NCBI GenBank assembly: GCA_973895155.1
Contig: OZ316894.1
Coordinates: forward strand, 14,089,680 to 14,153,679
DNA: 64,000 bases
Reading direction: 5' to 3'
Origin: Marsupella aquatica
Taxonomy: Eukaryota > Plantae > Marchantiophyta
In this document: piece after piece, positions 8,215-31,075 of the stretch
How the letters are laid out: each line of letters begins with the position of its first letter
Numbering within the stretch: position 1 is the stretch's first letter
The notes under the pieces: generated by a model
What the model saw: only the letters and a program-made list of their open reading frames with translations
Told to the model about the DNA's origin: nothing
Database searches by the model: none
Translations under genes and position numbers: made by a program

Positions 8215-8712
8215 AGCCACAATCACGACAGGGCCTGGATGGAGATGGGATATGTGGGAGAATTAGTTGACATATGGGCTCTGGACTATGGGGCGGTGTC
8301 CAGTCCTGTGATTCTTATGAAAGGTTCATGGGTGCGGCAGGATTGGCTTGGTAACAGGGCTACCATGAAGAGAGACAACGACGGTTTCTTGCTGGCCAAT
8401 TTCAGAGGGAAATTGCCCGAATGGTCTGAGCCATTTGTGTTTCCTAGTCAGGTGGAGCAAGCTTTCTTCCTGGATGTGGAAGACTCCCCAGGTTGGCGTG
8501 TAGTGTGTCATAAATAGGCCAGGCAACGTCGGATGGAAGGATCAAACCTTGAGTTTCATTTACACTCTCATAGTGCCTTTGATCGTCGGCGTTCAGACCA
8601 AGTGCCTGTAGTTCATGATAGCGGGGACTTCATTCCTGTGACAAGGGTAGATGCATTTGCTGAAGGAGGCGAATTCAGAGATGCAGATGCCAACAGTGTG
8701 CCTGTGCCATGA
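8215..8712 (+). pseudogene. 3' end of the CACTA transposase (TnpD, DUF4216 region) of element C, truncated by insertion A and carrying an in-frame stop
   Basis: WMEMGYVGELVDIWALDYG..PVILMKGSWV...RATMKRDNDGFLLANFR..PEWSEPFVFPSQVEQAFF aligns with 13123-13638. TAG at 8515-8517 replaces the Gln of VVCHSQARNRR, and the frame continues ARQRRMEGS. Confidence 0.85.
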
Positions 8713-9773
8713 GTAATGTGAATTGTTTGCATGGACATTAGTGAGGGGAAGGATGTGTAATAAAGTAATTCTGAAGCAACACAGATGTATGGATGGATGC
8801 CTGGTGATTGTGGTTGCATTGTGTTATACAGGGTGATCATAGATGACATGTTTTTGTGGTCCAGTAGGATGGAACAGAGTGACACAGAGATGTGTGAGTA
8901 TGAAAGGAAAGCTATGGAACAACGAGCATACGTGAAAGCCAAAATCGCAGAACACTAGTAGAAACCGGGGGGTATTTAGACCCCATTAAACGACTATTCA
9001 GTACCGTATAGGACTTGGAAACGACTGGGAAGGACTCTAGTCCTTTATAGGACTGTGAGTCGTATGTTTTGTTACTATAATCAACTGAGTCCTTTATAGA
9101 ACTGGTTTATAAGTCGTTTAATAGACTGGATTTTCAGTCTATTTTAGTCTTTGTGTGGGTAGTTTTGGTGAGTCGTTTTCAGTCTTTTATGGGCTGCGAT
9201 GATGAGTCGTTGGGAACGACTAAAAAGGTTATGGAGGGTAGTCTTTAAATATACTTTGTGGGGTATGTATAAGTCTTTCATGTCAACTGGATATGAGTGA
9301 TGAAGACCCCACTATACTACTTGGAATGAACCCACTCTTGTGCACAAATAATATATTGCATTCATGTTTTATTGTGTACTTGGAATGAACTCACTCTATA
9401 AGTTCACCATTCATCATGTTAACATTAGAATACATAGTTTCAGAAAGCCATCTTCTATACCATGTACACTAATATGAATTCACAGATTCAAACAGACTAC
9501 AAAGAAGGTCACAAAGTATTCCTCTATACCATACACACTAATACTGAAATGATAAAATAGATTCAAGTATCATAGACAATCACCATAGAGCCATAGTTTG
9601 ACATCAATCACTTGTTTCATACATACAGAATTCAGAAATATCAATGTCACACACAACGTCTCCTTCATCCTCTTTACCAAATGGAAAAATTGGTACAGAT
9701 ATTTCTTGGATCTTTCCAAGGCAATGTCAAAATGTGACACAATTCACATGATGCTATCTACACTTGCATTCAG

Positions 9774-12700
9774 TCACTGCAGACTAACACACTCTGATGG
9801 CCAGAGCACAAGAGATCCTACTGCATCTGCAATTATTTCCTGAGGTGGATCATCGTCTCTATTCGGAAATGGTAAATTACAATCAGATACAATCACTGTA
9901 GTCAACAACACTACTACATGGTCATCCGGGACCACTTTGCCATGGAATTTTGCATGATCCGGTCGCAAAATGCCTGTACCCACACATACCTGCGAGTCAT
10001 CCTCCCATGATAGAAGATTATGGACTGGCTCTGCTGTGGCTATCACCTCCACCTTACCCTGGCTGTTTTTCTTGGCTTTCCTGGGTGGCTTATACATGAC
10101 ATTATTCATACCTTGGTTGCGAGTCATGACTTTGGCACGAGTGTTTTGTGCTGGTGATCCAGAATTGGCTACACTCTTCTTCAAAGAATCTGCATCCATA
10201 TTTGACACTTCTGATTGTGTAGCAGGATTTCCCTGCGACATCATCTCAGTATCTGCCAACATTGTACTTGTTTCAATTGAAGCATCTACAATCTTACTTG
10301 CATCCAATGTTGCTCCCAAGTTTTGACGTCGCTTCACCCTACTCCCACTTGGTTGAGAGTCTGTCAACTCTGCATCAACTACAATTCAGTGTCATGTCCA
10401 ACATAAGTCAATCACTCATCACATGTGCTAAATGTACATGTCACCAACCACAAAGTTGTCACTATCTCCTTACCATTATGAACAGCCTTCTTCCCCTTCT
10501 TTGCCATTGCCATATGCTCCATGTCTGCTTTTGTTGATCAATAAACACACCACAATATTCAGGTTGAATCTATTAACCACTGAATTGTTGCTCAACATTC
10601 ATATAGAGGAATTTAAAGCATCAGCTTACCTGATACCTCCTTGGCTATGGTCACTGAGGCACTGGGCACATCTTCTTCATTATTGCTCTTTGAATCACCT
10701 GATACGTCAATCATGATGTCACTTCAGATCCCAGTTCATCCAACCAGTTCTTACAGAAAAGATTACCTCCAACCGGCTTAAGCTTCACAAAACTCCATGC
10801 ACTTTTCAAATGTAATGTATTGGATCATAGCAGGTTACCTGTCTCAGCAACCTTCTTGCCCTTCTGCTTACTGATTACAGGGTCCTTCTTTGCCTCCACT
10901 CTTCCTGCATTCAAACCATTCACTCAATTCATGAAAACTTACTTCTGACATTTGAACATAGGACACAATGAACAATGGGCCGATGTCATTTCCATACCTG
11001 TGTCAGATTTGCCAATTCCCTTTTTTGTTAACAAGGGCACACTTTGTACAATGTTGCCCTCATTGTTTGGTTGGGAACCACCCAATTTTTCAATCACAAG
11101 CTTGAAATTAGATTCCACTGATGCAAGAAGGTTCGCTATAGATGCCTCCACAATATCCAAACGATCAGCCAATTTACTTTCCACTCGAGGGAGTCCACAC
11201 TCTAATGACTTCAACCGTTCACACATCTCTGTGAGAGTTGTAACAGTTCCCTGTCATAACACAGCTTACATATCTCAGATAACTGTCCCCAAGAACTGGT
11301 TGCTTACTTCCTACTACAGTTCTTTCTGATGCTCAAGGCCAAATAGTCACAGAACATACATAATTACAACATAATCACCTGTTTGGAAGTTACACTTGTC
11401 ACCTCACTCCTTTGTTTCATGAACTCCTCTCTCACTTCTTGTGCTGATGGTTCTTCACCTGTCAATTTCTTCTGCAGTCCACATCAACATACATATGAAT
11501 GAAACCAAGTGTTGATTGTCAATGAAAATGTAATAATGGTAGCAAGATGATAAGTTTGAGGCTTACTATCAGGCATGTCACTGCCTTACCAATTGTTCTT
11601 TCACTGGAGCATAACTTCCTCTCCCAGCCTGTGAAAGGTGTTTCACTTTGCCTCGAGCATTTGACATCAGTTCACTCTTGCTCTGTCCAGCCTCCGACAT
11701 GAACCCTTTGATTAACCGTGTCCATTGATCCAGTTCCAATGATGGGGGTGGTGGCATTCTCCTGTTAGAACCATTGTCTATCCACATCCTTTTCAACCTA
11801 TGCCTCTCTTGTTTCAAAATCCTCATTGCATAATTTGATATGCAATCTTCAACTGGGCCCTTATCATCATTACCAACATACTCCCACCGTTCAAGAATGT
11901 CCTTGCAGATAGCAGCCCAATCAGCTTTGTTCTGACTCCTAAACTCTGTAATGCTCAAATCTAACCAACGCAATACTTCTCCTCTTAGGTCAGAATGCCA
12001 ACGGTTCTTACCATCACATGTGGGAGTTATCCAACCTTCGGAATTCACTTCTACTTTACCAAATTTGTTACTGTCTCCTGCCTTGGTACTCCCTGAAGCG
12101 CTACTAGGTGTCCCTCCACGGCCTGGTGTCCCCCCACGGCCTGGGGTCCCTCCACGGCCTGATCTCCCCCCACGGCCTGGATTGCATTGTCCAAACCTCC
12201 CTGGAGTCCCTGCACATGTACAAGATCCATTTACAGTCACTTACATTAGGTAAGTATGAATCATAAATCCCGCTGCCAAATATACAGTGGACTTCAGAGC
12301 AATTCTGCAATGACCAAGTTACCTCTCCCTTGGCGCATAGATGGTTCTGGACCACCTGTCCTATTGCTTTGTCTTGATGAATTAGGGGCGTTTCTCCCGC
12401 CTATGAATGATTGCCTCCTATCTGAATGTGGATGGCCTTTGTTGTTTTCGTGATTGTCCCAATCAGAGTCTGCATACCAACAGGTACATGCCACACTCAT
12501 GGACCTGTAAGATAAACTCTTTGCCCTAGCTACACATCAGATAAGTGCATATTGAGCTAAATCTCTACTACCATCACAAAATCACTAGCACAAGGCACTT
12601 ACTTGTCCAATCATCCTCCTCACCTTTCCATTGCCCTCTGTACCCGTCTCTACCACGCTCTGGGTGTTCATATTCATCCCATCCATCTTCTGCTCCATCA

Positions 12701-12945
12701 TAGTCATCATCATAATTATCAGGCGTCCCTTGCCAATAACTCTGGCTCCTTCTAGGGTATGGATTATGTGATTTCTCTCTAGCTGCCCACCTACCTGGGA
12801 CTTGATGAGGGCCCTGTGCATCTTGCACAAGTGCATTTTTCTGTGAGCCCCCTGCATCTGGGTCTCCATCCATATCCAATCTTTCCTCTTCACCCCACTC
12901 TCCAAGCCCCATGTCTGTCTCCATGTCATCACCCTCTTCCCCCAT
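9774..12945 (-). CDS. Multi-exon TnpA-like (CACTA ORF2) gene of element B
   Basis: Exon-like ORFs at 12574-12945 (acidic/Gly-rich), 11578-12240 (RGG repeats, then KNRWHSDLRGEVLRWLDLS...ERHRLKR..QWTRL), 10939-11226 (coiled coil) and 9774-10367 (FHGKVVPDDHVVV...LPFPNRDDDPPQ..DAVGSLVLWP, the En/Spm ORF2 C-terminal domain). They are separated by GT-AG introns and collinear with 26058-29680. Exact exon structure and integrity were not resolved. Confidence 0.7.
12107..12180 (-). repeat. 18-bp coding tandem repeat (PGRGGT)n, RGG-type low-complexity motif
   Basis: About four copies of CCACGGCCTGG(T/G)GTCCC encode PGRGGRSGRGGTPGRGGTPGRGGTP in ORF 11578-12240. Confidence 0.8.
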
Positions 12946-13122
12946 AGCTTCTGCACAGCACCCACAACCAAACAGGGAGAATCAGCACACTAAATTCAAA
13001 GTATCAATCAATTTCATGCATATCCAACTATCCTAAATATCATTCCAGGCAGCAATTCCCGTTATGTGACTCTGTGCAGGTAGTCATCCTCAACCTCATA
13101 CTTGCCAATCGCCAGCTGTTGC

Positions 13123-16100
13123 CTATTGCAAATCATCAACCTCATCATATTCCATTTGCCCAGGTTCATCATATGTCTCTCTCAATGTTAAGGGGATGTA
13201 GTCAGTCCCTGCCCGAGTTGGAAGTACAGTCTCATGACTAGGATGCTCGAATGCAGCATGGTCATCCAAACTGAACTCTACTTTACTTCCATCCATCCGC
13301 CTGTTCCGTGCTTGGCTATGGCATACCACCCTCCAGCCATGTGACTCCTCCACATCTGCAAAGAAAGCCTGTTCAACTTGGCTAGGGAAAACAAAAGGCT
13401 CAGACCATTCTGGTACTCTGGACCTAAAATTGGCCAACAAGAACCCATCATGATCACGCTTCATGGTGGCCCTTGGTCTCTGCCACTCTGATTTCACCCA
13501 TGATCCCTTCATCAATATCACTGGGACACTTGTGTTACCATAATTCAACACCCAAATGTCGGTCAACTCCCCCACGTAACCCATCTTCATCCACCCCCTC
13601 TGTTCTTCAGAGGTTCTCTGCTCAAACACAGAAATCAAACCACAATCATATGATACACAATGGTCACCCTACTCATCCCTCACTCGATAATGATTTCCAT
13701 AAGCTCTCATCCGTTTGTAGGTCAGAATAGACAATCGTGGTGGCACAGATAGAAGATACAAATCCTTCTCCATATCTGGGTGATGTCTACTATGCTCTCG
13801 AATTGTCACCCGAATCCACTGCTCGAACTGTGGGAAGGGATCCTGCTGCCCAGAGTGTGCAGCTTTTTGCATATCATATTCCCTGCATTATGAGGTACAG
13901 GCATAGTTAGGTCTAAACAACACATGACAACCTAAGATCACCCTTGGAACAGACAAGAAGCATCACAACAAAGGCAAGTCAATTCAATCACTCACCTCCA
14001 CCATGGTTGCATAGGCTCTGTGTTTGCCAGCACATATGAATGAGCCTTGTCTCGAATCGCAACAGGCAGCTGAACAGCACGTCCCACACCTTCAACAACC
14101 TCGCCACTCACTCCATCATCTTCACCAGATTTCCAAACTCTTGTCATAGCTTCACCAGACCCAGCCATGTACTCTGTTAGGAATCCCAACGTCTCATCCT
14201 TAATGTACCCCAATGCCATGGAAGCCTCTGGCCTGTAGTATGTTCTCACATGACCTTTCAACAACTTCATGTATCGCTCCATAGGGTACATCCATCTGGT
14301 ACTGACTGGCCCAGCCCTAGCTCTTCTACCACATGGATTAGGAGATGAGTCATAACATCAAAGAAAGCAGGGGGGAAGTATATCTCCAAGTCACAGAGGA
14401 CATAAGCAGCATCCTGCTTCAACTGCTCCAATCCTTGGGGATCCCACACTTTCACACATATACGGCGAAATACATTGCACAGTCAAAGAATGACATTACG
14501 GACTGGTTTCTGCATGAGACCTCTGAGGCATAGGGGCAGAATGTGCTGCATCAACACATGGTAGTCATGTGTTTTCATACTACCAAGTTTATTCTTTGTA
14601 ATATGCTTCTTGAAGGCACCAGCATAGCCAGAGGGCACTTTCAGACAGCTCAATCTATACAAGAATGTCTTCCATTCATCCTGTGTGCACACATAGGGAG
14701 CTTGGAACTTGAGAAGTACATTGGGATTGCTTGCATGGGGCTTCAACCAAAGGTGAGGGCGAATCCCCTTCTGTTGCATATCAGCTCGAACTGCTCCTGT
14801 ATCTTTCTCACCCGACAAGAACTTCAGCAAGCTCTCACAAATATTTTTCTCAATGTGCATGACGTCCACATTGTGTTTGCTGGGCTCGAATTCCTGCACT
14901 CCACAAAGCAAAGAATTCAACAACAGAAACACTAATTAACCACATAGGAGGATTGTAACCAACATCAATCCACCATTGCTCCAATCTAAAATTGCAATCA
15001 TACAGGGGCTGGAGGCTAAGTACATTACCCTCCAGTACTCCAACTCCAAGTCCATCAAGGTCTGTCTTTTCACACCGTGTTTCACCACTGGATCCTCAGG
15101 TTCTCGATCAGTGGCACTTCTCTTGTCCCAATCAGCCTTCCTGGCTGCCCACCTCAGGACTTGCTCTCTGGTGACCCTCTGTGGTGGGCCACGAAGCTCT
15201 GTTTTGTTGTTGAAGTGTGCAATTTGAGACCGTGTGTGCCTGTAAGGATGATCAACAGGCAGATACCTTCTATGCCCCTGAAATTTCATACTGTGCAGGG
15301 CATGCGACCACTCACTTGTCACATTTTTCCCACATGGTGTGCACCCCACATAGCCCTTTGTCACTCGTCCAGATATGATGCCATGGCCTGGGTAATCTGC
15401 TATATCCAGCAAACAAATTGCATGCAGTCTAAAGGGGCTGGGTCGAAGAAGCCCCTTCAGAACATCATGGGTTAACACCCCTTCTATCCACAAAGTCTTC
15501 CACTCTTCCACTGCTGGAGCCAACATGATATCTATGAATTGCTCGGTCACAGAAGCTGGTCCAGGGATTAACAGCACCATCATGACAAAAAACCTCTTTG
15601 TAGTCATCCATGGGGGAAGGTTGTAATTTAGCAGCGTAACCGGCCAACATGAATAACGGTTGTTTTTGTCTCCAAATGGGTTTACTCCATCCAGTGATAG
15701 ACCAAATCTAAAGTTCCGCTTCTCTGCAGCAAACTGTGGCCACCTCTCATCAACAAATTTCCAATGGTTGGAATCTCCAATGTGACGCTGCAGGCCATCA
15801 CTGCTCTTGTTATCAGGAGTCCATGTCATCAGCTTGGAAATGGCAGGGCATCTAAACAGACGTTGTAGTCTAGGAATGAGAGGAAAATGACGAAGAACCT
15901 TGGCAGGGTGTGTACATTTCCCTACATTCTTGTACCTGTGCTTACCACAATGAGGGCATGTCAATTTATCTGCATGCTCTTTGCGAAAGAGAACACACCC
16001 ATCAGGGCATGCGTCAATAGACACATAGTTCAGCCCAAGGTTAGACATCAATTTCCTAGCCTCGTACATATTTTTTGGAATTGAATTACCATCTGGTAAC

Positions 16101-16819
16101 ACATTTCGGCGCAGGAAGGTCAACAACTTTGTCACAAATATATTGGGAACATTGTGATTGCCACAGATGTTCAACAACAACACGACAAAACCCAGCTTGG
16201 AGCAGTTCGACCCCTCGTAGATAGGAATGCAAGCTTCTTTGATGTGTTTTGGGCCCCCAAACACCCACTCCCTCTCTGCTGCACCTTCCCCAATGTCAAA
16301 GTCAGGTTCAGCTTGGCCGTCGCCAATGTGTGGCTGCGGTTCATTGTCCTCTTCTAATTCCACTGTGTCGTAAAAAGCATCAAGGTCTTCAAAAATCTCT
16401 TGAACCATTCTTGGGACATCCATCCCACCGTCCTCAGTGACTGCCTCTCCATCTCCATCTTGGTCATCCACGTTCTCATGTTGGACCCCAGGACCATCCT
16501 CTGCACAGTCTATGTCCTGCTCTACGTAGTCTCTACGCCTAGCTGTATTAGAATCCACAAAGTCAGCTCTCCACTCTTCATCAGAGGAGTCTTCTTCTGC
16601 TGGTACATTCCAAACCCTCCACCGAGGGTGCCTTTCATGCCGCAGCAGGTGAAGGTGCACAGTGTTCAAACTCAACGACTTGAATCCTTGGCACTGTGTG
16701 CATGGGCATCTCATCCTCCTACTCCTACCTTGGGCGGCCCGTGCTTGTTCACGCATCCACAATTTAGAATCATGATGCCTAATCCTAAATGGGTTGTGAA
16801 GAGGCAACCTTGGAGCCAT
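13123..16819 (-). pseudogene. CACTA transposase (TnpD: N-terminal Zn motif, Transposase_21 core, DUF4218, DUF4216), 3 exons, inactivated
   Basis: Exons ~16819-15029, 14893-13996 and 13882-13123 with GT-AG junctions. Motifs: RCPCTQC, IDACPDGCVLF..CPHC, LSLDGVNPF, YNLPPW, DYPGHG, HNVDVMHIEKNICESL, KTHDYH, FFDVMTHLLIH, WMYPMERYMK. Lesions: TGA at 14483-14485 (likely CGA), a frameshift near 14312, and TAG at 13669-13671. Confidence 0.93.
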
Positions 16820-17145
16820 CACTATACACACGCACTCAGCACCCTGTCATTTTATTATGCAAGTGAAAAATACACTTCCTGTTAAGGATTTCACCCCCGA
16901 CTGTACTTGCCAAAATACGTAACGTTCCAAAAAAACAAAAAAACAAAAAATATAGGTGCCTGAGTCATGTACCTATTCTCAAGTGAATGAGACAAAATTC
17001 CTAAATGTTTGAGGGTGTCAACTCCTCCGCTGTCCTCACATGTACTGCCTCTGCACGTACATCCATGACCATATCAGAGTCCAATCATGTATAGTCATAG
17101 ACACAGGTGCCAGGTGCGAGACTGGTGTGAGATGTCCTCATCTTA

Positions 17146-17715
17146 CTACCACATCAAATACGGATACCAATCCTGTTGTCGATGCCACTCAGCCCTGAGG
17201 TACTCAGGCATGTACATTAAGTCATCAAGGTCTAAACCCTGCTCATGCCATGGTGGTCTTCGATCCGTGCCTACAAGTAGTGGCAGCAGTGCCCTCCATG
17301 GTGCACATGTTGCTACCAAGTCCCTCCACTGGGTACTAATTAGTCTATATTTGTAGATATCTTGTGCGCCAGACACCACAAGAACCCTCGGCTAGACATG
17401 TGTAAGAACTATATCATCTGCCAAATCAGGCAACAAGGAACCACCTACAGCATCATGCTTGTCTAACTCATCTGCTGAAAAGTAAATGTCCTCTTCCGAC
17501 TGTGCATCCTCATTCACCACAGCATTCACAACACATCCAAGATCTGCAGGCATTATCTCGGATGGAGCTACACTCTGTCTGGTTACCAATCCACACAAGT
17601 AAGCCCAAGCAGTAGCCATGCACGATGCAACCCGTAGGAGGACCCTACATAGGGCCTGACGGTCTGGAAGAGGCAGCATACCCACCAAAGTCTTCAGCCA
17701 AACAGAGCCCAGCAA
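17146..17715 (-). pseudogene. F-box protein, transposon cargo, one premature stop (likely TGG>TAG)
   Basis: ORFs 17392-17715 and 17146-17379 are in the same frame. Reading through the TAG at 17392-17394 gives SLLPDLADDIVLTHV(W)PRVLVVSGAQDIYKYRLISTQWRDLV, which matches the F-box consensus LP.LPDD......RV.......RLVS..WR.LV. Confidence 0.72.
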
Positions 17716-17855
17716 GTAGATTCACAGTCACACCCCACGCAGCAGGAAACAACAATCACTTCAACTGCGACCAACCATGACAAGATGAGTTAGTTCAAGG
17801 ATCACATTTATTACAAAATTGTGATTTATACAAAAATATGAGGGACTCCTACTCC

Positions 17856-18704
17856 TCACTCTCTCCCACCTTTGCTAAGCATACATCTCCGCTGAATCTT
17901 GGAGGGCCAGGCCTCAAAAATATCAAAGTCCCAAGCATTCTGTCGCTTCCCTCTAGCTGCTGATTCCAGAAGCCAATCAGGGGAAAGCACCCAAAGATTG
18001 TTGTTCATGACAAAATCACGCACTGTTGTCTTAAAGAATTTTCTGCATATTTTCATGTATGACAGACCTACAACATGAGTGGAGGTTTCTGTTAGACTCT
18101 CCTCCACTATCCCACCTAGCTCAACAACTATAGACTTGTACAATCTGCACTTAGTCTCCCCAATTCCTTCTTCTGCAAATACCACACTGAACCCCTTCAT
18201 AATGGTATTTCTCTCCTTGCCATGCTCATTCAATATAGCATCTGCACGCATAGGATGGTGTCCTATGTTGACAACAGGTCCATATTGGACAGAAGCAAAG
18301 TTGGGTTTCTCTGCCGCTGCTTCATAGGCTTCCTTTTCAGCCAAAGCCTCTGCAGTGGCCTCCTCACTCTCCCACAACTCATATTGCTCAGTACTCTGTA
18401 CACACCTATGTTTAACAGAATCGGTCAGCCAAGAGACTTCAACTACTTTTAGACCTTGGTTGGTAATGGCAGAATCAATGAAGGACCATGACCAGTTGTT
18501 CATCACATCCAGCCATGTCCCCGCAACAACATGTGTAGTCTGTGGAGTGATGTCCTTGACTTCAGTCCCATGGAACTCTGAGAATCGTTTTTGTACGATT
18601 GGCCAACTCACTTGGGTGAACCCATAGTGGCCAGGAATCAAAATGGCTTTGATTCCAGCCAACAGAGGCGGGTGGTCAACCTTTGTACGTTTCCTAGAGG
18701 CCAT
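17856..18704 (-). CDS. Tandem-BRCT protein (~282 aa), transposon cargo
   Basis: Intact ORF starting MASRKRTK (basic, NLS-like). Two BRCT repeats: LLAGIKAIL...HGTEVKDITPQTTHVVA...VVEVSWLTDSVKHR..STEQYEL and IMKGFSVVF...LGGIVEESLTETSTHVVG...VLSPDWLLESAARGKRQNAWDFDI. Both carry the THVV and W-L-x-[DE]-S signatures. Confidence 0.88.
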   Translation of the reverse strand: MASRKRTKVDHPPLLAGIKAILIPGHYGFTQVSWPIVQKRFSEFHGTEVKDITPQTTHVVAGTWLDVMNNWSWSFIDSAITNQGLKVVEVSWLTDSVKHRCVQSTEQYELWESEEATAEALAEKEAYEAAAEKPNFASVQYGPVVNIGHHPMRADAILNEHGKERNTIMKGFSVVFAEEGIGETKCRLYKSIVVELGGIVEESLTETSTHVVGLSYMKICRKFFKTTVRDFVMNNNLWVLSPDWLLESAARGKRQNAWDFDIFEAWPSKIQRRCMLSKGGRE

Positions 18705-19302
18705 GTACACACGGGCCACCTAATCACTGCAGACCGGAAGATAATGCGTTCACCTGATAATCGGAGGGCCCTTAAAATGCTGCGTTTATAACTTGGTCCA
18801 GTCCAGTCGTCTGGTGAGTCTCTGCTCCGATTCCAAACGGGAGAAATATTGGGACAAACGTACTAGACACCTGCAAGCATGCACCTCATAGTTTGAATAT
18901 GTGCCTTGACAATATTGAAGGTGACAAGTGCAATTGTTTTGTGATGCCACATACAGATGTTGTAAATGGGCAGACATTCAATGAGAATAGAAAATGTTGG
19001 TACACTTTAAGGGAATTCTTGCAAATTAAATAGCCTTGTAACTTATATGCTCATAATGAGAAGTCCTGATTTAATTTAAGCAGTGTCATGTAAGTCGTGA
19101 TCAAAATGATTGCAGAGTTAAAAAAGTTCCTAGAAGGCTTAAGGGGAGTTTTTGAAGGCATGTACCCAGGAACAAGTAATGAACTTAGGGTACTTGTTGC
19201 CTAAGCATCCTCTCCTACAGAGGTCCTTCTTCTCAAAATTGGAATGTCTGCAATCTCCAAGGTATCCACATCAGGTGCACTATGCATGTACATTATTCAG
19301 GT

Positions 19303-19983
19303 TCAAAGCCAAGAAATGTGATCTCTCATGGGAGTGTGCAAAGTAGGATCTATGGCATGGCGATGACAATAGAAGATCCATCGATCAACACCATGTGCAG
19401 AGTGATGATAGATGTGTCTGTCACAAGCATAGCCTTCTGCTTGACGCTCCTTCAAACAATGAAAGTGCCACATGGTGGGACACCTAACACAGTGGACTAT
19501 GTCCACCCAGAAATCTTCATCGTGCTGACCACATGCCTTGCACTTATGAAGTGGGCAAGCTGTGGCAAGATCGGGCAAACATGAAAAACAAAAGAACCTC
19601 ACACAATATCTGTCAGGGCATTTCCTAACAAGTGGTGGAGCATCAACAGAGCCCTCATAAGACCCCAACTTCCCACACTGTGCACACTTAGCCTGCTTCT
19701 CCAAACAATCAGTGCACATCCAGCCTCCCTGGTGTGCTGACGGGAGGCCCACCCCTGGACAGTTGTTTTCTGCAGCAAGGTCAGACTCCGGGTTGAGGTG
19801 GAAATGCCTCATGCAAGGGCCCTCACATATGGCTAAGCCACCACCATCGTCACAAATGGCACAACAATGAGCTGCCTTCTGGAAAATCTGACTTGCGGAG
19901 AAGTTACTACCATCTGGCCCAACTACACCTGTGTTGCTCACCTCTGTCCCCCGCTTCTTGGCTCGGATTTTAGGGCGTGCCAT
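19303..19983 (-). CDS. Stand-alone EDM2-type multi-PHD zinc-finger protein (226 aa), transposon cargo, copy B
   Basis: Intact and the same length as 321-1001. I count about 31 substitutions in 226 aa with all Cys retained. It has the same EDM2-like motif order, ending IFYCHRHAIDPTLHTPMRDHI. Confidence 0.88.
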   Translation of the reverse strand: MARPKIRAKKRGTEVSNTGVVGPDGSNFSASQIFQKAAHCCAICDDGGGLAICEGPCMRHFHLNPESDLAAENNCPGVGLPSAHQGGWMCTDCLEKQAKCAQCGKLGSYEGSVDAPPLVRKCPDRYCVRFFCFSCLPDLATACPLHKCKACGQHDEDFWVDIVHCVRCPTMWHFHCLKERQAEGYACDRHIYHHSAHGVDRWIFYCHRHAIDPTLHTPMRDHISWL

Positions 19984-20652
19984 GCCTACGCCTGAGACAA
20001 ATAGTACAATTTAGTAGAGTGCACAGACAATACAATTTAGTGCAGTGTACAAAAAGTACAGTGTAGCATATAGACTAGAGTGGCAATTGCTACTGCAATG
20101 AAATGTTCACACACATGTGCAGAGTAGACATACTTTTTGGTTTGTTGAGCCCACACTAAAAACTGATCCCCTCGTACAATAGCTCCACCTACACCTCAAT
20201 TTTGTGGCTATGATTCACCAAAGGAGATCTGCAACAAGATTTAATGCATTTGAATCACATATAACAGTCGTGACATGTAAAACAGGCATTTTTTGAACAG
20301 GATTGGTATCAAGCAGTGTGATCAGGGTTGTAATTTATACATCCTAAATAGGCTATGATAGTGAATGAGACAAATAAGTTAGGCATAAATCACTTTTTCC
20401 AGGTTATCACATGGCCCATTAATTCCAGTCTTTGAAAGGAGACTTTTAAGTGAGCTTGCTAGCCTCTTAATTTAGGATATTGTACTTAGTGCAGCCATAA
20501 TAGGATAAGTTATGTACTGTTGACCGTAAACCCTGGACCCAAAATTGCTCATAATTCAAAATCTTAAGTAAATATCCTCTCTGTTCTAGTCAAAGTGTTA
20601 AGTTATAGGTCAATCGTCTCTGGTCTGTGCATGCGGTGTGACAAGTGGTCTT

Positions 20653-21102
20653 CTACAGCGTGTGATCCAAACATGTGTAGACACCAAAGTGACCGGTGGT
20701 GGGGTCTGGGAGGGCAGGACAAGTGACATCGCCAGGCGCACTGCAGGATGGCGAGTGGTTCCAGATGATACATTGTGCTCTGTGAAAAAACCGACATCCA
20801 AGAGAACGGTCATCCAACTCTAGGCCAGAAGCCCTACAGGCAGGACAGTCATACTGGCAACTGTGCACACACCCTTGGGCCCTAATTTGTGGTGGGTCAT
20901 GTACAAGAGACAAAAATACCAAGGATGTTGGGAAGGATGGAGAAGCAGGTACAGGGCGGCTGTAGTTATTCCTGGCAACAACTGGGTACTCAAAGTACCA
21001 TGCAGATTGGGCTGGAAGGATCCCAAGTCTGACATACTCAAGGCGCAACATCTCTGCCTTGTGTGCAAGCCGCACATGTTCAGCATTGCGGGTCCTCACC
21101 AT
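20653..21102 (-). CDS. Cys/His-rich 149-aa PHD-like protein, transposon cargo, copy B
   Basis: ATG at 21102 (MVRTRNAEHV); collinear with 1772-2221, same length and stop position. Confidence 0.7.
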   Translation of the reverse strand: MVRTRNAEHVRLAHKAEMLRLEYVRLGILPAQSAWYFEYPVVARNNYSRPVPASPSFPTSLVFLSLVHDPPQIRAQGCVHSCQYDCPACRASGLELDDRSLGCRFFHRAQCIIWNHSPSCSAPGDVTCPALPDPTTGHFGVYTCLDHTL

Positions 21103-21486
21103 AAGTGTTGCTTTTGTGGAGTGTCGTGTGTTCACGTCCTCTGATAAGCACCTTCGATCAGCAAGGTGAGCAGGAGCTGTACTTGCCTCACCAACAGCAA
21201 CCAACCTTAAATTATCAGTTCCCACTCACTGTGTCATTCCATTGGTTCCAGCTAGGGGTCACAATGTAAACATAGCATGAAACACTCCTAATCAACTTGC
21301 TTACAAACTACAATATCCAGAAAGAGTGAAAGTCTCACCCTCCAGTGAGCAGCAGAGAGGTAGTTCACTGGATGTGTTGATGTGCAGTTAAACCTCCACT
21401 ATTGCTTACTTCCGGTGTATGCTGCTCAGTCGGAGACATATTAGTAGCAGCAAATTGCAAATAATGGCCATAAGCAAACCGTGAGA

Positions 21487-21958
21487 GTACTCAAAGTACC
21501 ATGCAGATTGGGCTGGAAGAATCCCCAGTCTGACATACTCAAGGCGCAACATCTCTGCCTTGCGTGCAAGCCACACATGTTCAGCGTTGCGGGTCCTCAC
21601 CATAAATGTTGCTTTTGTTGTGATGTCCTCTGTTCACGTCCTTTGATGAGCAAGGCGAGCAGGAGGTCGACTTGCCTTGCCCACAACAACCAACCTGCAC
21701 TTATCAGCTCCCACTCACTAAATTGGTTCCAACTACAGGTCACAATATACACATAGCATGAAAGGTGCATAGCACATATTTGATGCTAAGTTCCTGAGAC
21801 AAAGAGCATGTATATAAAACCATGTTCTCCATGGACATGTACATAAATCATATTTGGATCCTGTTTTTTCATCCAGAAAGATCGAAAGTCTCACCTTGCA
21901 GGTTGCAGCAAAGAGAAAACTCACTGGTTGTCGTGTTGTGCAAGTGAACCTCCACTGA
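21487..21958 (-). pseudogene. Truncated duplicate of the 5' part and leader of the Cys-rich cargo gene
   Basis: Encodes MVRTRNAEHVWLARKAEMLRLEYVRLGILPAQSAWYFEY and then breaks off. The upstream sequence is nearly identical to 2107-2570. Confidence 0.8.
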
Positions 21959-24900
21959 GGTGGCAGAAAGCAGACAAAGCTTCAGGAAGATGGGAAAGAT
22001 GATCCTCGCCCATCATCCCCTATAAAATCTGCACATAGGACGGACGCCCGGGGACATTTATCATGAAAATTGAAGATCCATTCGACAACTCCATGACAGC
22101 CTATTCCGCATTGTGTCCGCCCCATGCAAGCGAGGGGTGTTCAGCCGAGCTTAGTCTAACCATGAATGATTGTTCTGGAAGCAGTTGCGACAATGTTTTG
22201 GTTTTTTTCTCCTATCCAACTCAATAGCTCACAAACATGGCATTGGACCCATTAACAAATTATACTTGCCATCATTCTCAACTGTATTACATGGCCCACA
22301 CTGCTAACGTCCCTGACTCTTAAGGGAAACTCATCTCCTGGGCCAGCAACATCTCAGATTCTACAAAAATGAGAAACTGTGAAGACTTCTTGAACTCCTA
22401 TCCTGTGACTGTAGCATGTATGATTTGCTGGGACTGCAGGCAGTTCTGGATCCTGTTGCGGTTTATATACAGCAGCAACCTGAGCTCCATGAATTTGTTT
22501 TTAATAGACATGCGTTTGACCACGGCTACAACTCCAAAACAATCACCAAATCAAATCATAACAAAACCCACTCGAAAGCTGAACACTAGAACACTGGAAC
22601 ACACTCAAACAGGTTCTGCAAGGATGGCTCTCTGTCGGATCGGCTAGAGAATCAGGCAGGCTTCCTATTACGGTCTGCTCAAAGCCTTACACTCTGGATT
22701 AGACTCTGAATCCAAACGCGAGTCTACGCTTTCCGTTGCTGGTCACAGCGACGGGCAATCAGGATGATGCCATGCCGAGTAGAAGAACAAGAAAGCATTC
22801 CATAAAAGGCACTGAGATGAACCGTATAGTAAAAGTGGTAGTACTTCTGGTAGCGCGACCGACTCGCTATGTGACAGTCCGGAAAAAAGCTGAAAGGCTG
22901 AACTTAGGCGATAGATTCCGTGCTCAATGTGACAGGTTTTTTGAAATGATCAAGCCAAGGTGCAAAGGAAAACTGATTGAAGGTGGCATGGGAAAGTTGT
23001 CAATGCAGGAGAAACTCTTGCCTTAGAGTAACCTTGTAACCAGGTAACAATGCAGGAGAAACTCTTGCCTTAGAGTGCTCGACGCTCCTTCAGCTGGATA
23101 GGGGCAGCTCCAAGTACACGGTCTGGTCCAATCACCGCCTGCTTTGTTACAAGAAGGTGGACTAAGCCACAGCTGACGTCAATCATGCTATAAAAAATGG
23201 ACAGATGAGCCGTGCACAGTAAAAAATGGACAGATGAGCCGTGTCACGGAAGCATATAGTCATTCCTCAATATTAAACGAGACTATGAGAGGGCATATAT
23301 AAGTTCACGACCAGGAAAGAGTCTCACCTTGCAGCACGGAGATTCTCAAAGCGCACCAAGATGAGTCCTTGTAGCAGGTGAATGTTGGGCGGTGTCATGT
23401 AAGGCGCAAATCAATAGCTCGCTACCTCCTATCTCCCCGTTTGTCTCCCGTGCACTTCTACCTCCCCGTCCGACTTCCCGTCTGTCTCCCACGTACTTAA
23501 ATTGAAGTTTTAACAAAAACTATCAACACCAAGTGCAGCAAATGCCAACATATTCACATTGCAGAGCATAAAAGTAGTCACAGTTCATGAATCAGTTCCC
23601 TATCGAATCATGGGCACTACGCCGAGCACTGCGCAAGAGACTGGGATAGACACTGCAAACATGGGGACTTTTGTTTGGCAAGAAATCTGGACATCAAACC
23701 TTCAGCAGCGGCAACGGGAAGCATTACATCAGACGAGTGGACATCAAATGAGCAGTCCAATTATAGGCAAACGGCGACTGACATAGAAGAGGGAAAAAAT
23801 GTGCATTGACATAGCGGACATGCGCGCATTGACATAGCGGAGGGGAGCAAAACTACATAAGCCAAGTGACCTTTTTAAGGCCCACAATTTCAAGGGGAGG
23901 GACAAAGAGAGCAAGCACTCCAATCTCTTCAATCCCTTTCGCAAGTAGCCGCCGAAATCTACTTCTTGGGGTCCAGCCCACGGATGTAGATCATGCAAGG
24001 TGGTCAATCACAGTAAGTGTAATCACTACGCCGAGCACTGCGCAAGAGATTGGGACAGAGACTGCAAACATGGGGACTCACAGGCAAGAAATCTGGACAT
24101 CAAACCTTCAGCAGCGATCGATGGGCCTTAATTCACAGGTCGCCCGGCTCGGTCCCTTGTTGCAGCTCGCCCAGCTCCACAACACCATAGACAAGGAGTT
24201 TGCAGGTCCAGTTTCCACCACGCAGCGTTAGCAAAACAAAAATGCTTGATCTTCGCCCTCCGCCCTCTGCCCTTTGCCCGAACCCCAAAATATCACAAGC
24301 GCAGCTCCAACGTCCAACCGGCAACCCTCCCCCGAGCTTTGTTAGACAAAAATCAGCACAGCACAACTGAGCTCGACGGAAATAAGCTCAGCACCCACCG
24401 CAGCTGAACAAAGCTCACACAAGAGCTCATACGGGAGCTCACTGTGGGAGTAAAAGAAAAATAGGAGGGCCGATGGCAGCCCGCAACTCCCACACCCTGC
24501 TCCTTCACAACTCTGGCGAGCTCCTTTGCAACTCCAATGCAAACTACTATCCACAATTGTAAATGCACATCGATCAGCCAAACCTAAACCCTCCCACTGA
24601 GCTCAGACTCCCGCGCAACACTCCCGCAGTAGCACTCCTGCAACAACACATTGCACAGCACTCCCGCAGCACATTGCACATCCTCCCGCAACACTTTGCA
24701 CAGCGCTCCCGCAGCTCCTGGAGACCTGATTGAAGCCTTGATTGCACACTCTTGAGGCAAAACAGCAGCGCAACCTTGCTAAACCCCTTGACCCTCTCGC
24801 CCTAAACGCTGAGTGGCAGACACTAACCGCAACATTCAACGTTGAGCCTCGATACTTTATGAGAAAAGTAAAACACGACTGAAAGGCGCGAGGGTGAAAA

Positions 24901-25199
24901 GGGTGCAAAGAGCCGTTTGGCGCCAACCTTACTATGACATGGCAGCCCCTAGAGTGATCTCAGCCATCCGGATGAAAAGAGATTGCCTTGAGTGATCTCG
25001 ACCATCAATATGCAGGTTTCATGTTAACCCCAGGCCCCCATTCCCTCTACTTCAAGTGTCTAAATTAATTACACTCCAAGCCTTGTCTAGCCCCTAAAAA
25101 ACTAGTGCTAAGTCATGACTACTCGGCCTTCTCAAAGTATAGCCCAGCTGAGTAAACTTCCAATATGCGACTTTTTGATGGTGGGGATCGATGGACTCC

Positions 25200-25700
25200 A
25201 TCCAATGGTCCCTAAACCCCCCATCCCCTTAACCCTAAACCCCCCACCCTTGACATCTCAACCCTCCACCCTTGACATATAAACCCCCCTAAACCCCCTT
25301 TAGTGAAAACTCAGCCACCCCCACACCTTGACATATAAACCCCCTAAATGTCTTGACAACTCGACTGTGGCCAGACTGTTTTTGCAATGCCACGGGCCGT
25401 TTTAGAGCGCCGCTTGCAAGCTCAGGATCAATGAAGCATGTTGCCTCCAGCTCTCCAAATCCTCCCAAGGCAGCAAACAAGTTAGGGTCCACGGTCCCTG
25501 TTCGTTTACCCTAAATCGCTGCGTCACTATTTCAATTGAGTGTTCTCTGACCCTAAACCCCCTTTACTGACCCCCACCCCCTTGAGACATAACCGGCCCA
25601 CCCTTGGCATATAAACCCCCCTAAACCCCTTTAGTGGTGAACCCCCACACCCTTCGCATGTAACTGGCCCACCCTTGAGCCCTAAGCCCCCCCAAACCCA
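25200..25700. repeat. Degenerate C-rich / telomere-like (CCCTAAA) subterminal repeat block of element B
   Basis: Repeated CCCTAAACCCC and CCTTGACATATAAACCCCCTAAA units, e.g. near 25210, 25233, 25270-25297, 25325-25348, 25551 and 25602-25630. Confidence 0.75.
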
Positions 25701-26057
25701 CTATGGAGTATATTCAAAATTAGGGAATTTCAACATTTACGCCGTTTGTCCGTGTTCAAGTTAGCGGGATGTTGGTAAAGAGGTTGTCAAATGAATTGTG
25801 CCCCCCCCCATATGCCCATTATCAAATTAAAGCCCACAACTAAACCCTACAACCCATCATGTGCTAGAGTGTTCATACATTCACAAAGAAGGGTACTTTT
25901 CATAGTCTTATCCAAAACCAAAAAGCACTCACAGTCTTTTGTAGTGTTCATGTGAACCGTGGCAATGGTTTCGAGTCATTTAAGGTTGCCAAAAAGGACT
26001 TAGTGGCCTTAGTCCTATAAGGTTTGGTCTAAATTGCCCCGGTTTCTACTAGTGGAA

Positions 26058-29000
26058 CTGGATCTGGAAAAGGATGTGGCTGAATTGTAAGGGAACGATT
26101 CTCAACTACACCCCTCCGCTGAGTTTGTGTGACATGAATAGTTCAATGTGGCACTGAAATTGTGACTGTATTCTCATATTGGAATGTCGCAGAGCCACAG
26201 CATTTTCAAAGAAACAAAAGGAGTACGCAAGAAGGGTGACCAGCATTATCTCTGGGCCTGTGCGTCGGAGTGACAGGTTGAGCAAGAAGGTCGTACCTAC
26301 AATGGCAGAATGTGGAGATGACATTGATGCTGCACAGGTGGGTGCAGACACTAGACAAGAAGATGCAGATGATGAGTATTTTCCAGAGGAAATGGATGAG
26401 GATGGGGGTTATGAAGATGAATACATTGCAGAGCAGCCCCAAAAGAAACAGGTAAGTAGTTTTCCCAACAAGGTTTTGAGTTAAAAACTCTTGTTTAGAG
26501 GTTTCATATGTTCAGTACTACACATATGTACCTTGCTTAGTTCCTGACATTGTAGTTGGTGATGTGATGCAGTGTCCTGCCAGTTCTATTTTGCCTTCGA
26601 AGCCTGTGCATGCACCATACCAGCAGGGGGGGCTGACCTCTGATCAAGGTTGGCGAGGTGGTAGTAGTGGTAGATCCCAGGCTGGTGCCCAATACTATGG
26701 CAGGGGGCAAGCTCTAGGTTATGCCCGTGGTAGAGGCAGAGCAGGTCCAAACCCACAATCTCGTGGGTATGGACGTCCACCTCAACCATGGGGATGTGAG
26801 TATATATCTATATGCCAGTTCTTTGTGAAGGCATGGCACTCCTGAATTTCAGACTGCATATCAATTTTTGACATTGTTTGGGATGTATTGGATTCAGACA
26901 ACATGAAATTCTGTCCACCTGCCATTGCATGCAGATTCTGCCCAACCTGATTGGGCAAATGCTAGTAATGATCAGTTCCAATGTCCACAAGGACAGACAT
27001 GGGTTGAACCAGGTTGGGAGGATGGTGGTGGGTCGTGGAATGAACAAGGTTGGGAAGGTGGTGAAGGTAATTGGCAGGGATATCAAAATTCAGTACCTAC
27101 AAACGCTGGAAGAGGGGCAGGTAATGTCTGATCTTGTCAGCAATGGAAGAACTCATTATATCTGGAGTCCATTCACGTGGGTGGGACTCTGCACATGTAT
27201 AATGATAGAAAATGTATGTGTGCAGGTTGGACAGTCGAACCATCGACTCAAGTATTCACTAATGCCCCTATGCAGATGCAGCACGGAAGGGGGACAGGTA
27301 TGTTGGTGAATGTTCAGTTGTTTTCCTACAGTTTGTACTTAGTTTTCAGTACATATGTTTGCACACACATACCTAGAAAGTGACATCATCCGGCCCCTGT
27401 ACTAGGCTGGACAGGTGGTCCAGGGTCGCAACAATTTCAGAGTGCAGTCCCTGCACAGGCATCTACAGGCAGAGCTACAGGTATGTATGTTTGAAGAATT
27501 TTTCTTGAAGTGAAGCATTGAATGTTGCCGTCATCCATTCTGCTATATGTAGTTCTCAAGCATGAATGGCATTGTATTTTCCCAGGTGGCTTCAGAACCC
27601 CAGGTAGGGTGAATGAAGGGGTGGCCAATACAACGCCCAGTACTACAGAGAGCAGTGCACGAGGGGAGGTGACAAAGAAAGGGAACGTAAAGTTGAATGA
27701 GAGACAATGGGTGGATGCTGAGTGTCCTCGCAAGAACCGATGGCATGCTGATTTGAAAGCTGAAGTATTGCGTTGGTTAGATGTGAGTGTTATTAATTTT
27801 AAAAAACAGCATCCAAAAGATTGGAAGACTGTATGTGAAAATGTTGTTGCCAAATGGAATTATGTGGGCAGTGATGATGGCGTGGACATAGGTTGCCTAG
27901 AGAGTACAGCAGGTAAAATCATCAAGCAAGAGAGGTGGAGAGTGCATAAGGCTTGGAAGGAAGGTGGGGAGAAGCCAGATATGCCTCCACCAGCCAGTTG
28001 TGATGATAAAGTGTGGGCAAGGTTAGTAGTTTATTTTGTAACAGATGCTTCAAAAAAGAAGAGTTCACAGATGACCGAGGCCAGGTTGAGTGTTCAGAAC
28101 CCTAATCTGACAGGAAGGACCGGCACTACACCGACAGCTAAACGTTTGGTAAGAATGAATGGCCTAGCTATGTAATTTATGCTACACTATGTACTGTTTT
28201 TTAGTGTAAACCCATACATGTAAACTTTGTTTTTTAGTGTACGTTCCCTGAATATTGATCGATAACTTGTGTTTGCCATGCATGTGCAGAAAGCCCAATT
28301 GGGGCAAAGCCCTTCAAAAGAAGAGTTGAGGGCTGAAATTGTGAACACCCGGGCTCAAGAGGGTGCATCTGAATCCTCCAAGCATGTAAGTTATATGAGT
28401 TCTGATTGGTAATTGAATGACCTGCGTTGAATTTCAGGTGTACACTGTATATAACATTGATTGTGCATATATTGCCCAACATTTCATATGGAGTGATTGA
28501 ACCTATACCCCTGTGTCATGTAGGGAGGTGGATCTTCACTTACAGAGATAAGTGGTCATTTGAAGGCTGTCGAAACATGTCTTCCAGAGATCAATGAACG
28601 TTTGAATTCATTGACTGACTTGTTCCATGTGAACTTCAAGACATTAATGGAAGCTGTTGTGTCGGTGAGAGATAAAATTGATTCCAATTCTGCAGGAGTT
28701 CCACCATCACCACTTGAGGTGGCAAAGTTGATGCACTCTTCTGGCATGCCAACGACATGTAGGCTTGAAGGTAAGGCCTTTACAACTGTGTGGGATATGA
28801 TTATTAAATGTATAGTTTGAATTGACATTGTTTGTCGAATGTGTTATTTTCAGTAACATATATTGTGGTTGATGTGTCCATAGAGAATAAGACAGGTGCT
28901 ACAGAGAAGAAGTATGAGAACCTGGCAAATACTCGCTGTAATTTAGAGGCAACAAAGTTGCAGTCTGTACAAGCAACTTGTTTGACAGAGGGCAGTCAAC

Positions 29001-29680
29001 CATGTTTGGATGAGGATGACATTGGCAAGGGAGTGGATGATATCAATGTTGGGGCAAATGAGGATATCAGCAAGCATGACAATGATACCATTGAGCCAGA
29101 TTCATGCTATGTAGATCTTGACTCCATTGCAGAGATAAATGATTTGCAGAATGTATCATTCTCAATGACAGGTGTGCCTCTTGTTGAGATAAATCCAACC
29201 AAAGAGTTAGTTGGTATGACACTCCTAGGTGATCAACCTGCTACTGTGACAGTCCTAACAGAGGAACCTACTGAGCCTAGCTTCACTACTGTGAAGAGAG
29301 GAAGCATGCGCACACGAAGCAAGCCTGCTAGTGGGAGCAGAGCCACGTCAAAGGTTTCATACAAACCTCCAAGAACGGTGCTGGCAGAAAGATCTAAGGT
29401 GGAAGTGGGGAAAGCACCTAATGCTGAGGGACAAAGTGGCTTGTTAGCTCTTGATGAGAGTGGAACACGAGTAGGATTTGGCAGAGTGCAGGTTGGTTCC
29501 ACAACGTTCCATGGCAAGAGGATTCCCCCAGGTTATTCAGTAGTGTTAGTCACATTACTAGTGAAACCTAAAGCTGTCCTTCCCATTCCAAACACAAATG
29601 ATGATCCTCCTCAAAAGACACTTGGAGATGCTGCAGGTTCTTTGGTATTATGGCCAAGCAAGTTCATAGAGGATCCATAA
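26058..29680 (+). pseudogene. TnpA-like (ORF2) gene of element C, first exon (8869-8952) disrupted by element B
   Basis: Exon-like ORFs at 26179-26484, 27522-28175 (KNRWHADLKAEVLRWLDVS...KQERWR..WARL), 28560-28820 and 28832-29680 (FHGKRIPPGYSVV..LPIPNTNDDPPQKTLGDAAGSLVLWP). They are homologous to 9774-12240. Confidence 0.78.
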
Positions 29681-31075
29681 CAATGTCATGTCATTATTTG
29701 TTTGTAGTGTGAGTCATGTTATGTAGATTTTAGATGTCAAGAAGCAGTACAAGAATCATGTCCTCTTGGAGATTCATAGTATCATGCATGTGCTTTCAGT
29801 TATCTCATCCTGCAGTCATCAATTATGAGTTCCTGTTTTGTCTGAATTACATTGATCACATTGTAAACTATTCCATTGGAATTCAAATGATCTTCATTTT
29901 TTAGCAAGATTGTGATTGTGTTTAATTCTTATGAATGTTTTATGTAGGATCTGCTTATATGATGCTTTGTTTCATGTGGATGTCATTCATGCTATGTTCA
30001 TTTCTTGTATTGAATGTGTTATATTTCTAAAGTTAGAACATCAGTGTTTCTATGTATTGTAATGTCGAGTGCTCTCTCTCCTTATGAACTGTCCCTCTGT
30101 GTTCATTAGTCATGGTTATAACTTGCATGTGAACCTTATTAGTTATAAACATGAGTATATAGAGTCCCAAATGGTTCTATTGTGTGACGCGGGCCAGGGT
30201 CTCCATTGGTCTCTCCTGTGACACTAAATGGTCACACACTAGTCGTTGTTGAATGCGGGTAAGTCATGCATGTGACTTACGATGTGACTCGCTGAAGTCA
30301 TATTGCAGTCACGTCGAAACAAGGCTAGACTCCACAATAAAGTCACAGATCAGTCACAAATGGGTATCAAGCAAGTTGCAAAGCCCAGTATCAATAGTGA
30401 CTACCATTTTTTGGTCTCAACTTTTGCAACTCCAAGGGTCACAGCGTGGGTCAAGTCACGTTGAGTCACAATGAAGTCACATGAGCCAAAATGAGTCACA
30501 TATTGCGGTCTCAGTTCACCTCGGATTCTTCTAGTGACGCACTCCCAAAGGACACAACCTGCTAAACTTTGAGACATGGTCATCTAAACACTATAATATA
30601 TATTCCTGCTATTTCTTTCTCAGTTATGTCATTTTGACGGGAAGCTTCCTTGGACGCTCAATTAAGGTGACATATTTCCTCACCATGAGATGGGCCTGTA
30701 GGTGTCATTGCACACCTTTTCCGCACCCTGCCCCTCACTCTCCCCACAGCTCGCACACTCCTTGAAATCCAGCTGCCAAGCTGACTGGTTGACTCTTTGC
30801 GGCATCTGACAGATTGGCTATCTCAAGTATGCTTGACAACATTTCCACTCAACATCACTTACTATTGAAATACTCTGAAAACCCACAAGCATTCAACTAC
30901 TTTTAGATGTTATTACACTGCCCTAGAATGAAAGGCGCCAAACCTTGAGACATGATCCTCTACAATGACTATCTTACGGTCACAGCGTATTATCATTCTT
31001 ATGGAAATAAGTTTTAGGGATTATGAATGTGATAGTCCAAAACTGCACAGGTGTTTACTATACTGCAGCCCTCTG

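Follow-up and report, generated by a model that had tools for sequence, protein, structure and literature searches.

Why does a liverwort transposon carry an ORF for a histone-reader module of the EDM2 family, and what could the encoded protein do for the element? The question is raised by an ORF in a 64,000-nucleotide stretch of the Marsupella aquatica genome, which is referred to below as the window. Read from the minus strand at 19303..19983 (ATG at 19983, stop codon ending at 19303; the plus strand is interrupted by stops there), the ORF encodes, in a single coding stretch, a protein of 226 aa comprising 2.5 PHD fingers and an EDM2-specific C-terminal extension. The protein begins with MARPKIRAKKR and ends with YCHRHAIDPTLHTPMRDHISWL, and the YC..H.I.....TP.RDH motif, diagnostic of the EDM2 family, occupies residues 205-222 (19318..19371, minus strand). 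The first-pass annotation had described a basic N-terminal peptide joined to an EDM2-like PHD block with the YC..H motif, and this description was confirmed by translation, Pfam, BLASTP and AlphaFold2 (AF2).

Pfam yielded NSD-type PHD models only, each below its cut-off (PF23011, E 3.4e-4; PF23004, E 3.8e-5). Among named proteins of the EDM2 family, BLASTP found 32% identity with Marchantia Mp1g03210 (residues 13-225, E 6e-30) and the same identity with a Mangifera EDM2-like protein (residues 41-225, E 2e-28). The AF2 model has a mean pLDDT of 85.8; residues 26-226 are confidently folded, while residues 1-25 are disordered (pLDDT <50). Alignments and the model show the zinc ligands intact across the 2.5 atypical fingers, with one ligand of finger 2 being C and not H. 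PDB searches found no solved structure of a plant EDM2.

Assignment to a family was approached with a profile built from seven close relatives, which retrieved 565 proteins at E ≤0.001 among 1.84 billion representatives; the best 150 were analysed, and identities were looked up for 20 of these and for 10 short ones. Among the best 150 of the 565, the top matches are short proteins, followed by unnamed proteins of Marchantia, Riccia and Calypogeia and by others from Neltuma, Mangifera, Selaginella and Miscanthus that bear the name EDM2 or EDM2-like. By sequence, the best solved relative is NSD2 (E 7e-11, profile positions 18-177), and the block resembles the PHD1-3 cassette of NSD1-3 in this respect. 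However, matches to NSD2 and NSD3 end by position 177, and a profile of the C-terminal extension (E<0.01) recognized 125/130 EDM2-type rows, a count that is partly circular as these rows were picked for coverage of the whole block, versus 0/6 NSD-like rows. The module was therefore placed in the EDM2 family, and the earlier proposal that it is EDM2-type, and not a member of an unrelated PHD family, holds. The nearest named proteins of the EDM2/ELP1 group (Mp1g03210, Mp4g03050 and Riccia and Calypogeia paralogues) share with it the 2.5 atypical fingers and the YC..H.I...TP.RDH extension.

About 20 unannotated short relatives, with identities to the PHD ORF down to 38%, retain the start, the stop and the zinc ligands; they have a common start region and end in DHISW[LI] where complete. 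About half of those recovered have truncations or frameshifts, which decayed repeats would be expected to show. Transposon context is established for the main copy of the window alone. Trees were built from 71, 42 and 29 rows, leaving out 27 proteins that do not span the block. In the 42-row tree the short clade (11 rows) has a support of 100/100 and is sister to short liverwort paralogues with 95/79 (89/80 in the 29-row tree); the two groups also have in common the motif [IVW]-[WY]-x-H, which precedes the last zinc ligands. The quick 71-row tree did not fix the placement of the clade, whose stem is long (about 2 changes per site). Phylogeny with EDM2 and NSD rows had been suggested as a check of the first-pass annotation; it gives a sister relationship to short liverwort EDM2 paralogues, but the AU test retains a grouping with NSD-like rows (p 0.585), as it does groupings with seed-plant EDM2 (p 0.139) and long liverwort EDM2 (p 0.275). 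The trees thus favour a liverwort EDM2 paralogue as the putative donor, with three alternatives kept by the AU test.

Searches for further relatives with genomic context gave no case among 42 candidate stretches of viral contigs. Of 221 candidate stretches in metagenome contigs, nine matched, none of them a member of the short clade; they encode host-type EDM2 or other PHD sequences (25-46% identity), and no transposase was noticed among the three longest ORFs of each. One weak match among 20 from prokaryote genomes (E 2e-4) was taken as chance. A search of 3355 candidates for longer fused forms returned two unrelated long PHD proteins (weak evidence).

The PHD ORF is located within a CACTA/En-Spm element of 17.1 kb (8953..26054, minus strand). 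Its terminal inverted repeats, 18 bp long, identical and beginning with CACTA, were found at 8953..8970 (3′ end) and 26037..26054 (5′ end); subterminal repeats are present, and a GAA target duplication flanks the element at 8950-8952 and 26055-26057. The corresponding empty site was recovered as contigs joining 8949 to 26055 in 4/4 sequencing runs; a further run, X5, which contains 0.31 of the element's words, was left out of the run comparison. Five ORFs, preceded by acceptor-like sites, follow one another on the minus strand: ORF-X, the PHD ORF, an ORF with two BRCT domains, TnpD and a TnpA-like gene. The spliced TnpD gene (13123..16846, minus strand) encodes a transposase with Transposase_21 (E 1.3e-59), DUF4218 and DUF4216 domains. 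That a DNA transposon encodes the PHD ORF, as first proposed, is borne out by the CACTA ends, the target duplication, the transposase and the empty site.

In this copy TnpD is broken by two in-frame stops (14483-14485 and 13669-13671) and by a frameshift near 14313. At the frameshift, four additional bases are present in the dominant contigs of runs X2 and X4, so other copies of the element differ there. The candidate TnpA-like exons (9774..12981, minus strand) were recognized by a weak Transposase_24 match (E 0.014; 16 bits vs a Pfam cut-off of 28.7). Weak Transposase_24 matches are present in this liverwort at 11578-12240 (minus strand) and 27522-28175 (plus strand); TnpA-like proteins are described in a 2026 preprint as apparently limited to flowering plants (bioRxiv 10.64898/2026.08.24.746577). 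The two-BRCT ORF (17856..18719, minus strand; 287 codons from stop to stop, first ATG at 18704) matches PF00533 in two stretches (E 2.4e-13) and shows weak matches to the BRCT domains of BRCA1 (E 0.16-0.7). Its contig depth is as high as that of the transposase (a 421-base contig of depth 1768 in X2). Between this ORF and TnpD there is a 109-codon open frame (17392-17721, minus strand) without a Pfam match. ORF-X (20653..21102, minus strand) encodes a Cys/His-rich protein of 149 aa starting with MVRTR, and a partial duplicate of 39 codons lies at 21487-21603. One relative of ORF-X was found (53% identity); Pfam and Atlas searches gave no match, and its AF2 model (pLDDT 40) was unusable.

The CACTA ends, the 3-bp duplication, the subterminal repeats, TnpD and, less clearly, the candidate TnpA-like gene are features common to this element and to CACTA/En-Spm transposons such as maize Spm (TnpA/TnpD) and Arabidopsis Spm1 and Spm3, from which it is distinguished by three extra ORFs (PHD, BRCT and ORF-X) upstream of TnpD. 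A 2026 preprint surveying 962 Spm proteins refers to "various accessory proteins", its main text naming neither PHD nor BRCT (bioRxiv 10.64898/2026.08.24.746577). Full-text searches, in a literature collection without most subscription papers and Repbase, found no CACTA element described with a BRCT gene, an EDM2-type PHD or a histone mimic.

Sequencing depth was used to gauge the abundance of the element, with a single-copy host gene containing a nucleoplasmin-like domain (52697-55289, minus strand) as the baseline. Run X2 is identical to the window along 5,950 bases of single-copy sequence, at a depth of 18.2, and covers the element body with seven contigs of 421-1,644 bases, with 2-7 differences, at depths of 1,766-2,073. 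This suggests roughly 100 near-identical copies of the element, a figure estimated from single contigs because summed depth does not equal copy number. In run X4 a 229-base contig within the PHD ORF, with 0 differences, reaches a depth of 2,884 vs a single-copy depth of about 48-60. The stretch 22163-25067 has about 1/10 of the depth of the element body. The element has recently multiplied.

The window contains the PHD ORF a second time, again intact (321..1001, minus strand; 86% aa identity), with ORF-X upstream at 1772-2221; the terminal ends of its element were looked for within the 64 kb and not found. Between the two copies dN/dS is 0.268 (dS 0.268, dN 0.072; Fisher p 2e-7), the differences are distributed over codon positions as 15/19/36 (p 0.005), and none of the 23 cysteines differs. 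The non-coding stretch 5′ of the ORF has diverged by 0.10 and the 3′ flank by 0.23; as dN is close to the former value, the constraint on the PHD ORF is moderate. The PHD ORF is under purifying selection, and so is ORF-X, whose own frame gives a dN/dS of 0.26; the value is 0.27 for the antisense frame in register with it and 0.89-1.43 for the other four.

These data bear on the view that the ORF is passive Pack-CACTA cargo, i.e. a captured gene fragment without function. CACTA elements do capture host DNA (PMC8616336), and the decay of about half of the short relatives would agree with such an origin. Against it stand the third-position excess and the low dN/dS, the retention of start, stop and zinc ligands at identities as low as 38%, and a remodelling of finger 2 that is clean and common to a clade with a long stem; passive cargo is thereby largely refuted and very improbable. 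The element has transposase genes, and its cargo is selected and shares 32% identity with the named host proteins examined, whereas a Pack-CACTA would lack transposase and carry a fragment close to a host gene. We are highly confident that the ORF is a real, selected, EDM2-derived gene belonging to this CACTA family.

Whether the protein is complete as read from the ORF depends on the signals around its start. A candidate splice-acceptor AG (19986..19987, minus strand) lies 2 nt 5′ of the ATG in both window copies, where its use would be possible, and in both copies in-frame stops are found 10 codons 5′ of the ATG. The first-pass annotation had the ORF encode the peptide and the PHD block and nothing else; this agrees with the Pfam result, but the acceptor-like site may serve an upstream coding exon. 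A candidate leader exon of 60 nt (AG...GT, without ATG) is located at 21895..21954 (minus strand), with a counterpart at 2507-2566 upstream of the second copy, and one of its frames would join the PHD ORF in frame. A start feeding that frame was searched for upstream in the window and none was found; the one open ATG found upstream, at 23398, would by eye end in a stop or join out of frame. In both copies the N-terminal peptide is directly followed by a donor-like AG|GTGAG (19942, minus strand). The BRCT ORF and TnpD are preceded by acceptor-like sites in phase with it, so that the peptide could be spliced onto them; as one such site per 9 kb is expected by chance, this is a lead only.

The stand-alone form is not unique to the transposon, since annotations of Marchantia and of the grasses Miscanthus and Eleusine include EDM2-type proteins of 280-386 aa that have the PHD block only. 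The novelty is therefore not the stand-alone form; it is a selected EDM2-type PHD as part of a multi-copy transposon. The grass-type short EDM2-like proteins (L001, L003-L007; P0030, P0036, P0038, P0056) consist of the PHD block and a C-terminal GxCGWLxD, some of them beginning with MARxK, and apparently represent an independent origin of a reader-only EDM2.

By analogy with EDM2, the reading we prefer, with a probability of roughly 0.38, is that this CACTA-borne, EDM2-derived protein acts as an anti-silencing adaptor on H3K9-methylated chromatin. EDM2 was pulled down by H3K9me1/2/3 peptides and not by unmodified H3 (PMC6208443), and it anchors the AAE complex via H3K9me2 (PMC9910501); loss of EDM2 can strengthen as well as weaken the silencing of transposons (PMC3632883). 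Accessory proteins that plant DNA transposons encode separately (VANC21, TnpA) are reported to counter silencing (PMC8616336; bioRxiv 10.64898/2026.08.24.746577), and an anti-silencing role is favoured because the described separate accessory genes act in this way. In the proposed scheme the PHD ORF would be expressed, probably by splicing from the shared leader; the PHD block would dock on H3 tails within H3K9-methylated chromatin; TnpA would presumably cooperate by supplying sequence specificity; and the N-terminal peptide, which resembles histone H3 (see below), would divert H3K4/H3K9 writers or readers there. Docking of the protein on silenced chromatin is likely, if the parallel with EDM2 extends to the transposon copy. 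The CG observed/expected ratio is 0.25-0.28 in both copies of the PHD ORF, so the element family has been methylated despite the PHD gene.

Like the VANC21 gene of VANDAL21 and like TnpA, the PHD ORF is an accessory gene that a plant DNA transposon carries as a separate unit and that has a proposed role against silencing. VANC and TnpA are described as binding their cognate DNA sequence, whereas the PHD ORF encodes a predicted chromatin reader of host origin, without a known DNA-binding domain. Histone-reader folds are carried by other mobile elements: Academ transposases carry PHD fingers and chromovirus integrases carry chromodomains, the readers being fused to the recombinase. Rehavkus transposases, too, carry fused PHD fingers (PMC6446971). 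Unlike all of these, the PHD ORF is separate and belongs to a different PHD family. What is known of how plant DNA transposons remain active under H3K9me heterochromatin, or aim at it, comes from just a few accessory proteins that bind DNA (VANC, TnpA). The reader described here is small, folds well and derives from the host, and selection maintains it in a CACTA family that is actively spreading; the question could thus be tested on a single protein of 25 kDa, and the ORF provides a natural minimal EDM2 PHD module.

The fingers themselves bear on docking. In the short clade, C replaces H in finger 2 and the spacer is reduced to 7 residues in 15/15 matching rows (16 examined), whereas EDM2-type rows have H in 119/121 and a median spacer of 27; finger 2 of the PHD ORF is about 20 residues shorter than that of EDM2. 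The acidic run before finger 1 is also lost (median net acidity of 0 in 10 short-clade rows vs 5 in 123 EDM2 rows), so H3 binding may have changed or gone. There is a precedent in the VEL PHD fingers, which have lost H3 binding and bind polyanions instead (PMC9640981), and the lost acidic run together with this precedent constitutes the main doubt about H3 binding. It is conceivable, though unlikely, that the role is not histone-related, the fingers binding DNA, RNA or an element protein (ORF-X, BRCT or TnpA) and the basic tail being just a nuclear-localisation signal. The reshaped fingers and the VEL example would fit such a role, as would Foldseek, in which the best matches of the AF2 model were PZP domains and the PHD-C5HCH tandems of NSD proteins, all scoring low by query TM-score (0.20-0.29). 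On the other side, alignments show that finger 1 keeps the D-D/E-G-G-x-L-x-x-C-D/E strand common to the H3-binding AIRE PHD1, and the EDM2 extension is conserved to its last residues throughout the short clade.

In EDM2 the 2.5 PHD repeats are accompanied by acidic regions and, C-terminal to the PHD block, by a methyltransferase-like ELP domain (PMC7529245); the protein promotes full-length transcripts across intronic heterochromatin (PMC9910501, PMC7529245). The PHD ORF differs from it in lacking the RFD (found in five of the long matches scanned), the acidic region and the ELP methyltransferase-like domain, with no EDM2 sequence left 3′ of the PHD block, as well as in its single coding stretch and its place in a multi-copy transposon. 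The first-pass annotation had also considered help with RNA processing. In such a role the protein would recruit or mimic ASI1-AIPP1-EDM2 so that the long multi-ORF transcript of the element is completed while heterochromatic. Five same-strand ORFs with acceptor-like sites, a conserved candidate leader exon and the known activity of EDM2 speak for it. The absence of the RFD and of all other EDM2 parts outside the PHD block, together with the loss of about 20 residues of finger 2, weakens this option, which we consider quite improbable. For the anti-silencing adaptor, the history was probably one in which a non-seed-plant EDM2 paralogue was captured, its RFD and catalytic-like parts were deleted and finger 2 was shortened.

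Insertion sites are of interest for a different role, that of a targeting adaptor, in which the reader bridges TnpA/TnpD to H3K9-methylated nucleosomes and directs insertions into heterochromatin, while the BRCT protein handles the break. The main copy sits in another CACTA, an outer remnant (8158..30536, plus strand) with DUF4216 at 8158-8517, TnpA-like exons at 27522-29680 and a terminal repeat at 30536, and the empty site in this remnant is itself high-copy (joint depth of 1826 in X2 vs a single-copy depth of 18.2). The adjacency of the BRCT and PHD ORFs would also suit such targeting, for which chromodomain-guided chromoviruses offer a precedent. However, this is a single insertion site, and a shorter element with related ends, without a PHD ORF, inserted where the depth is that of single-copy sequence (16.3 at 36139 in X2; its empty site has a depth of 103 in X3, where single-copy depth is about 70-130). 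Moreover, the PHD protein and the transposase are encoded separately, the former has no extra docking domain, and targeting appears rather doubtful. The shorter element (36229..40877) shares the first 13 bp of its ends, has a TTT duplication and contains a TnpA remnant. Run X3 shows its empty site, and a repeat of very high copy number lies in its middle part (38756-40747). A LINE retrotransposon was noted at 44639-49348 on the plus strand; its endonuclease and reverse transcriptase are spread over several frames, and its depth is about 5-10x that of single-copy sequence.

The diverting step of the anti-silencing scheme concerns the N-terminal peptide M-ARPKIRAKK (19954..19983, minus strand), which is disordered in the AF2 model, the tail not being docked on the fingers in this single-chain prediction. 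The peptide is basic, as first described, but it also fits the tail of histone H3 in the pattern A1-R2-x-K4-x-x-A7-x-K9. The H3 reference tail was taken from locus L012, with R2 as the alignment anchor. Among the starts of the short clade, A1 is matched in 12/20, K4 in 17/20, A7 in 10/20 and K9 in 12/20, with variable residues between them. In 16 non-redundant rows, positions 3-10 gave 34 matches to H3 vs 15.4 after shuffling, and 0.7% of column orders scored as well in a joint column permutation (p 0.007), a value that is post hoc and comes from related rows. In 6/20 rows extra residues precede the motif, leaving no free A1. A nuclear-localisation signal could have a similar appearance.

The N-terminal AR motif is a likeness to the EDM2 family as well, in seven non-seed-plant or algal members examined. 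A MAR start is found in 14/136 other profile matches, and the seven such EDM2-type proteins from liverworts, lycophytes and algae all read AR[TV]xxxA, without K4. The proteins in question are P0016, P0017, P0018, P0020, P0022, P0027 and P0088 (liverwort, Selaginella, Mesotaenium), and most seed-plant EDM2 matches lack such a start; the PHD ORF thus draws attention to this motif of non-seed-plant EDM2 proteins. Since it occurs in seven host-type proteins, the H3-like peptide may descend from a host N-terminus, onto which K4 and K9 may have been added in the transposon lineage.

The H3-like N-terminus may act as a decoy against silencing. A more elaborate proposal, which we put forward as rather unlikely, is that a CACTA lineage outside the flowering plants combines an EDM2 reader homing to heterochromatin with a mimic of the H3 tail, which would sequester H3K9 methyltransferases or attract the H3K4 machinery, along with a BRCT protein. 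If true, the H3-mimic reading would be a case of histone mimicry by a transposon, for which the literature searches returned no earlier example. H3 genes were also encountered in 38 contigs of the viral collection (L011-L048), where they encode the canonical first ten residues and tails that often diverge past residue 20.
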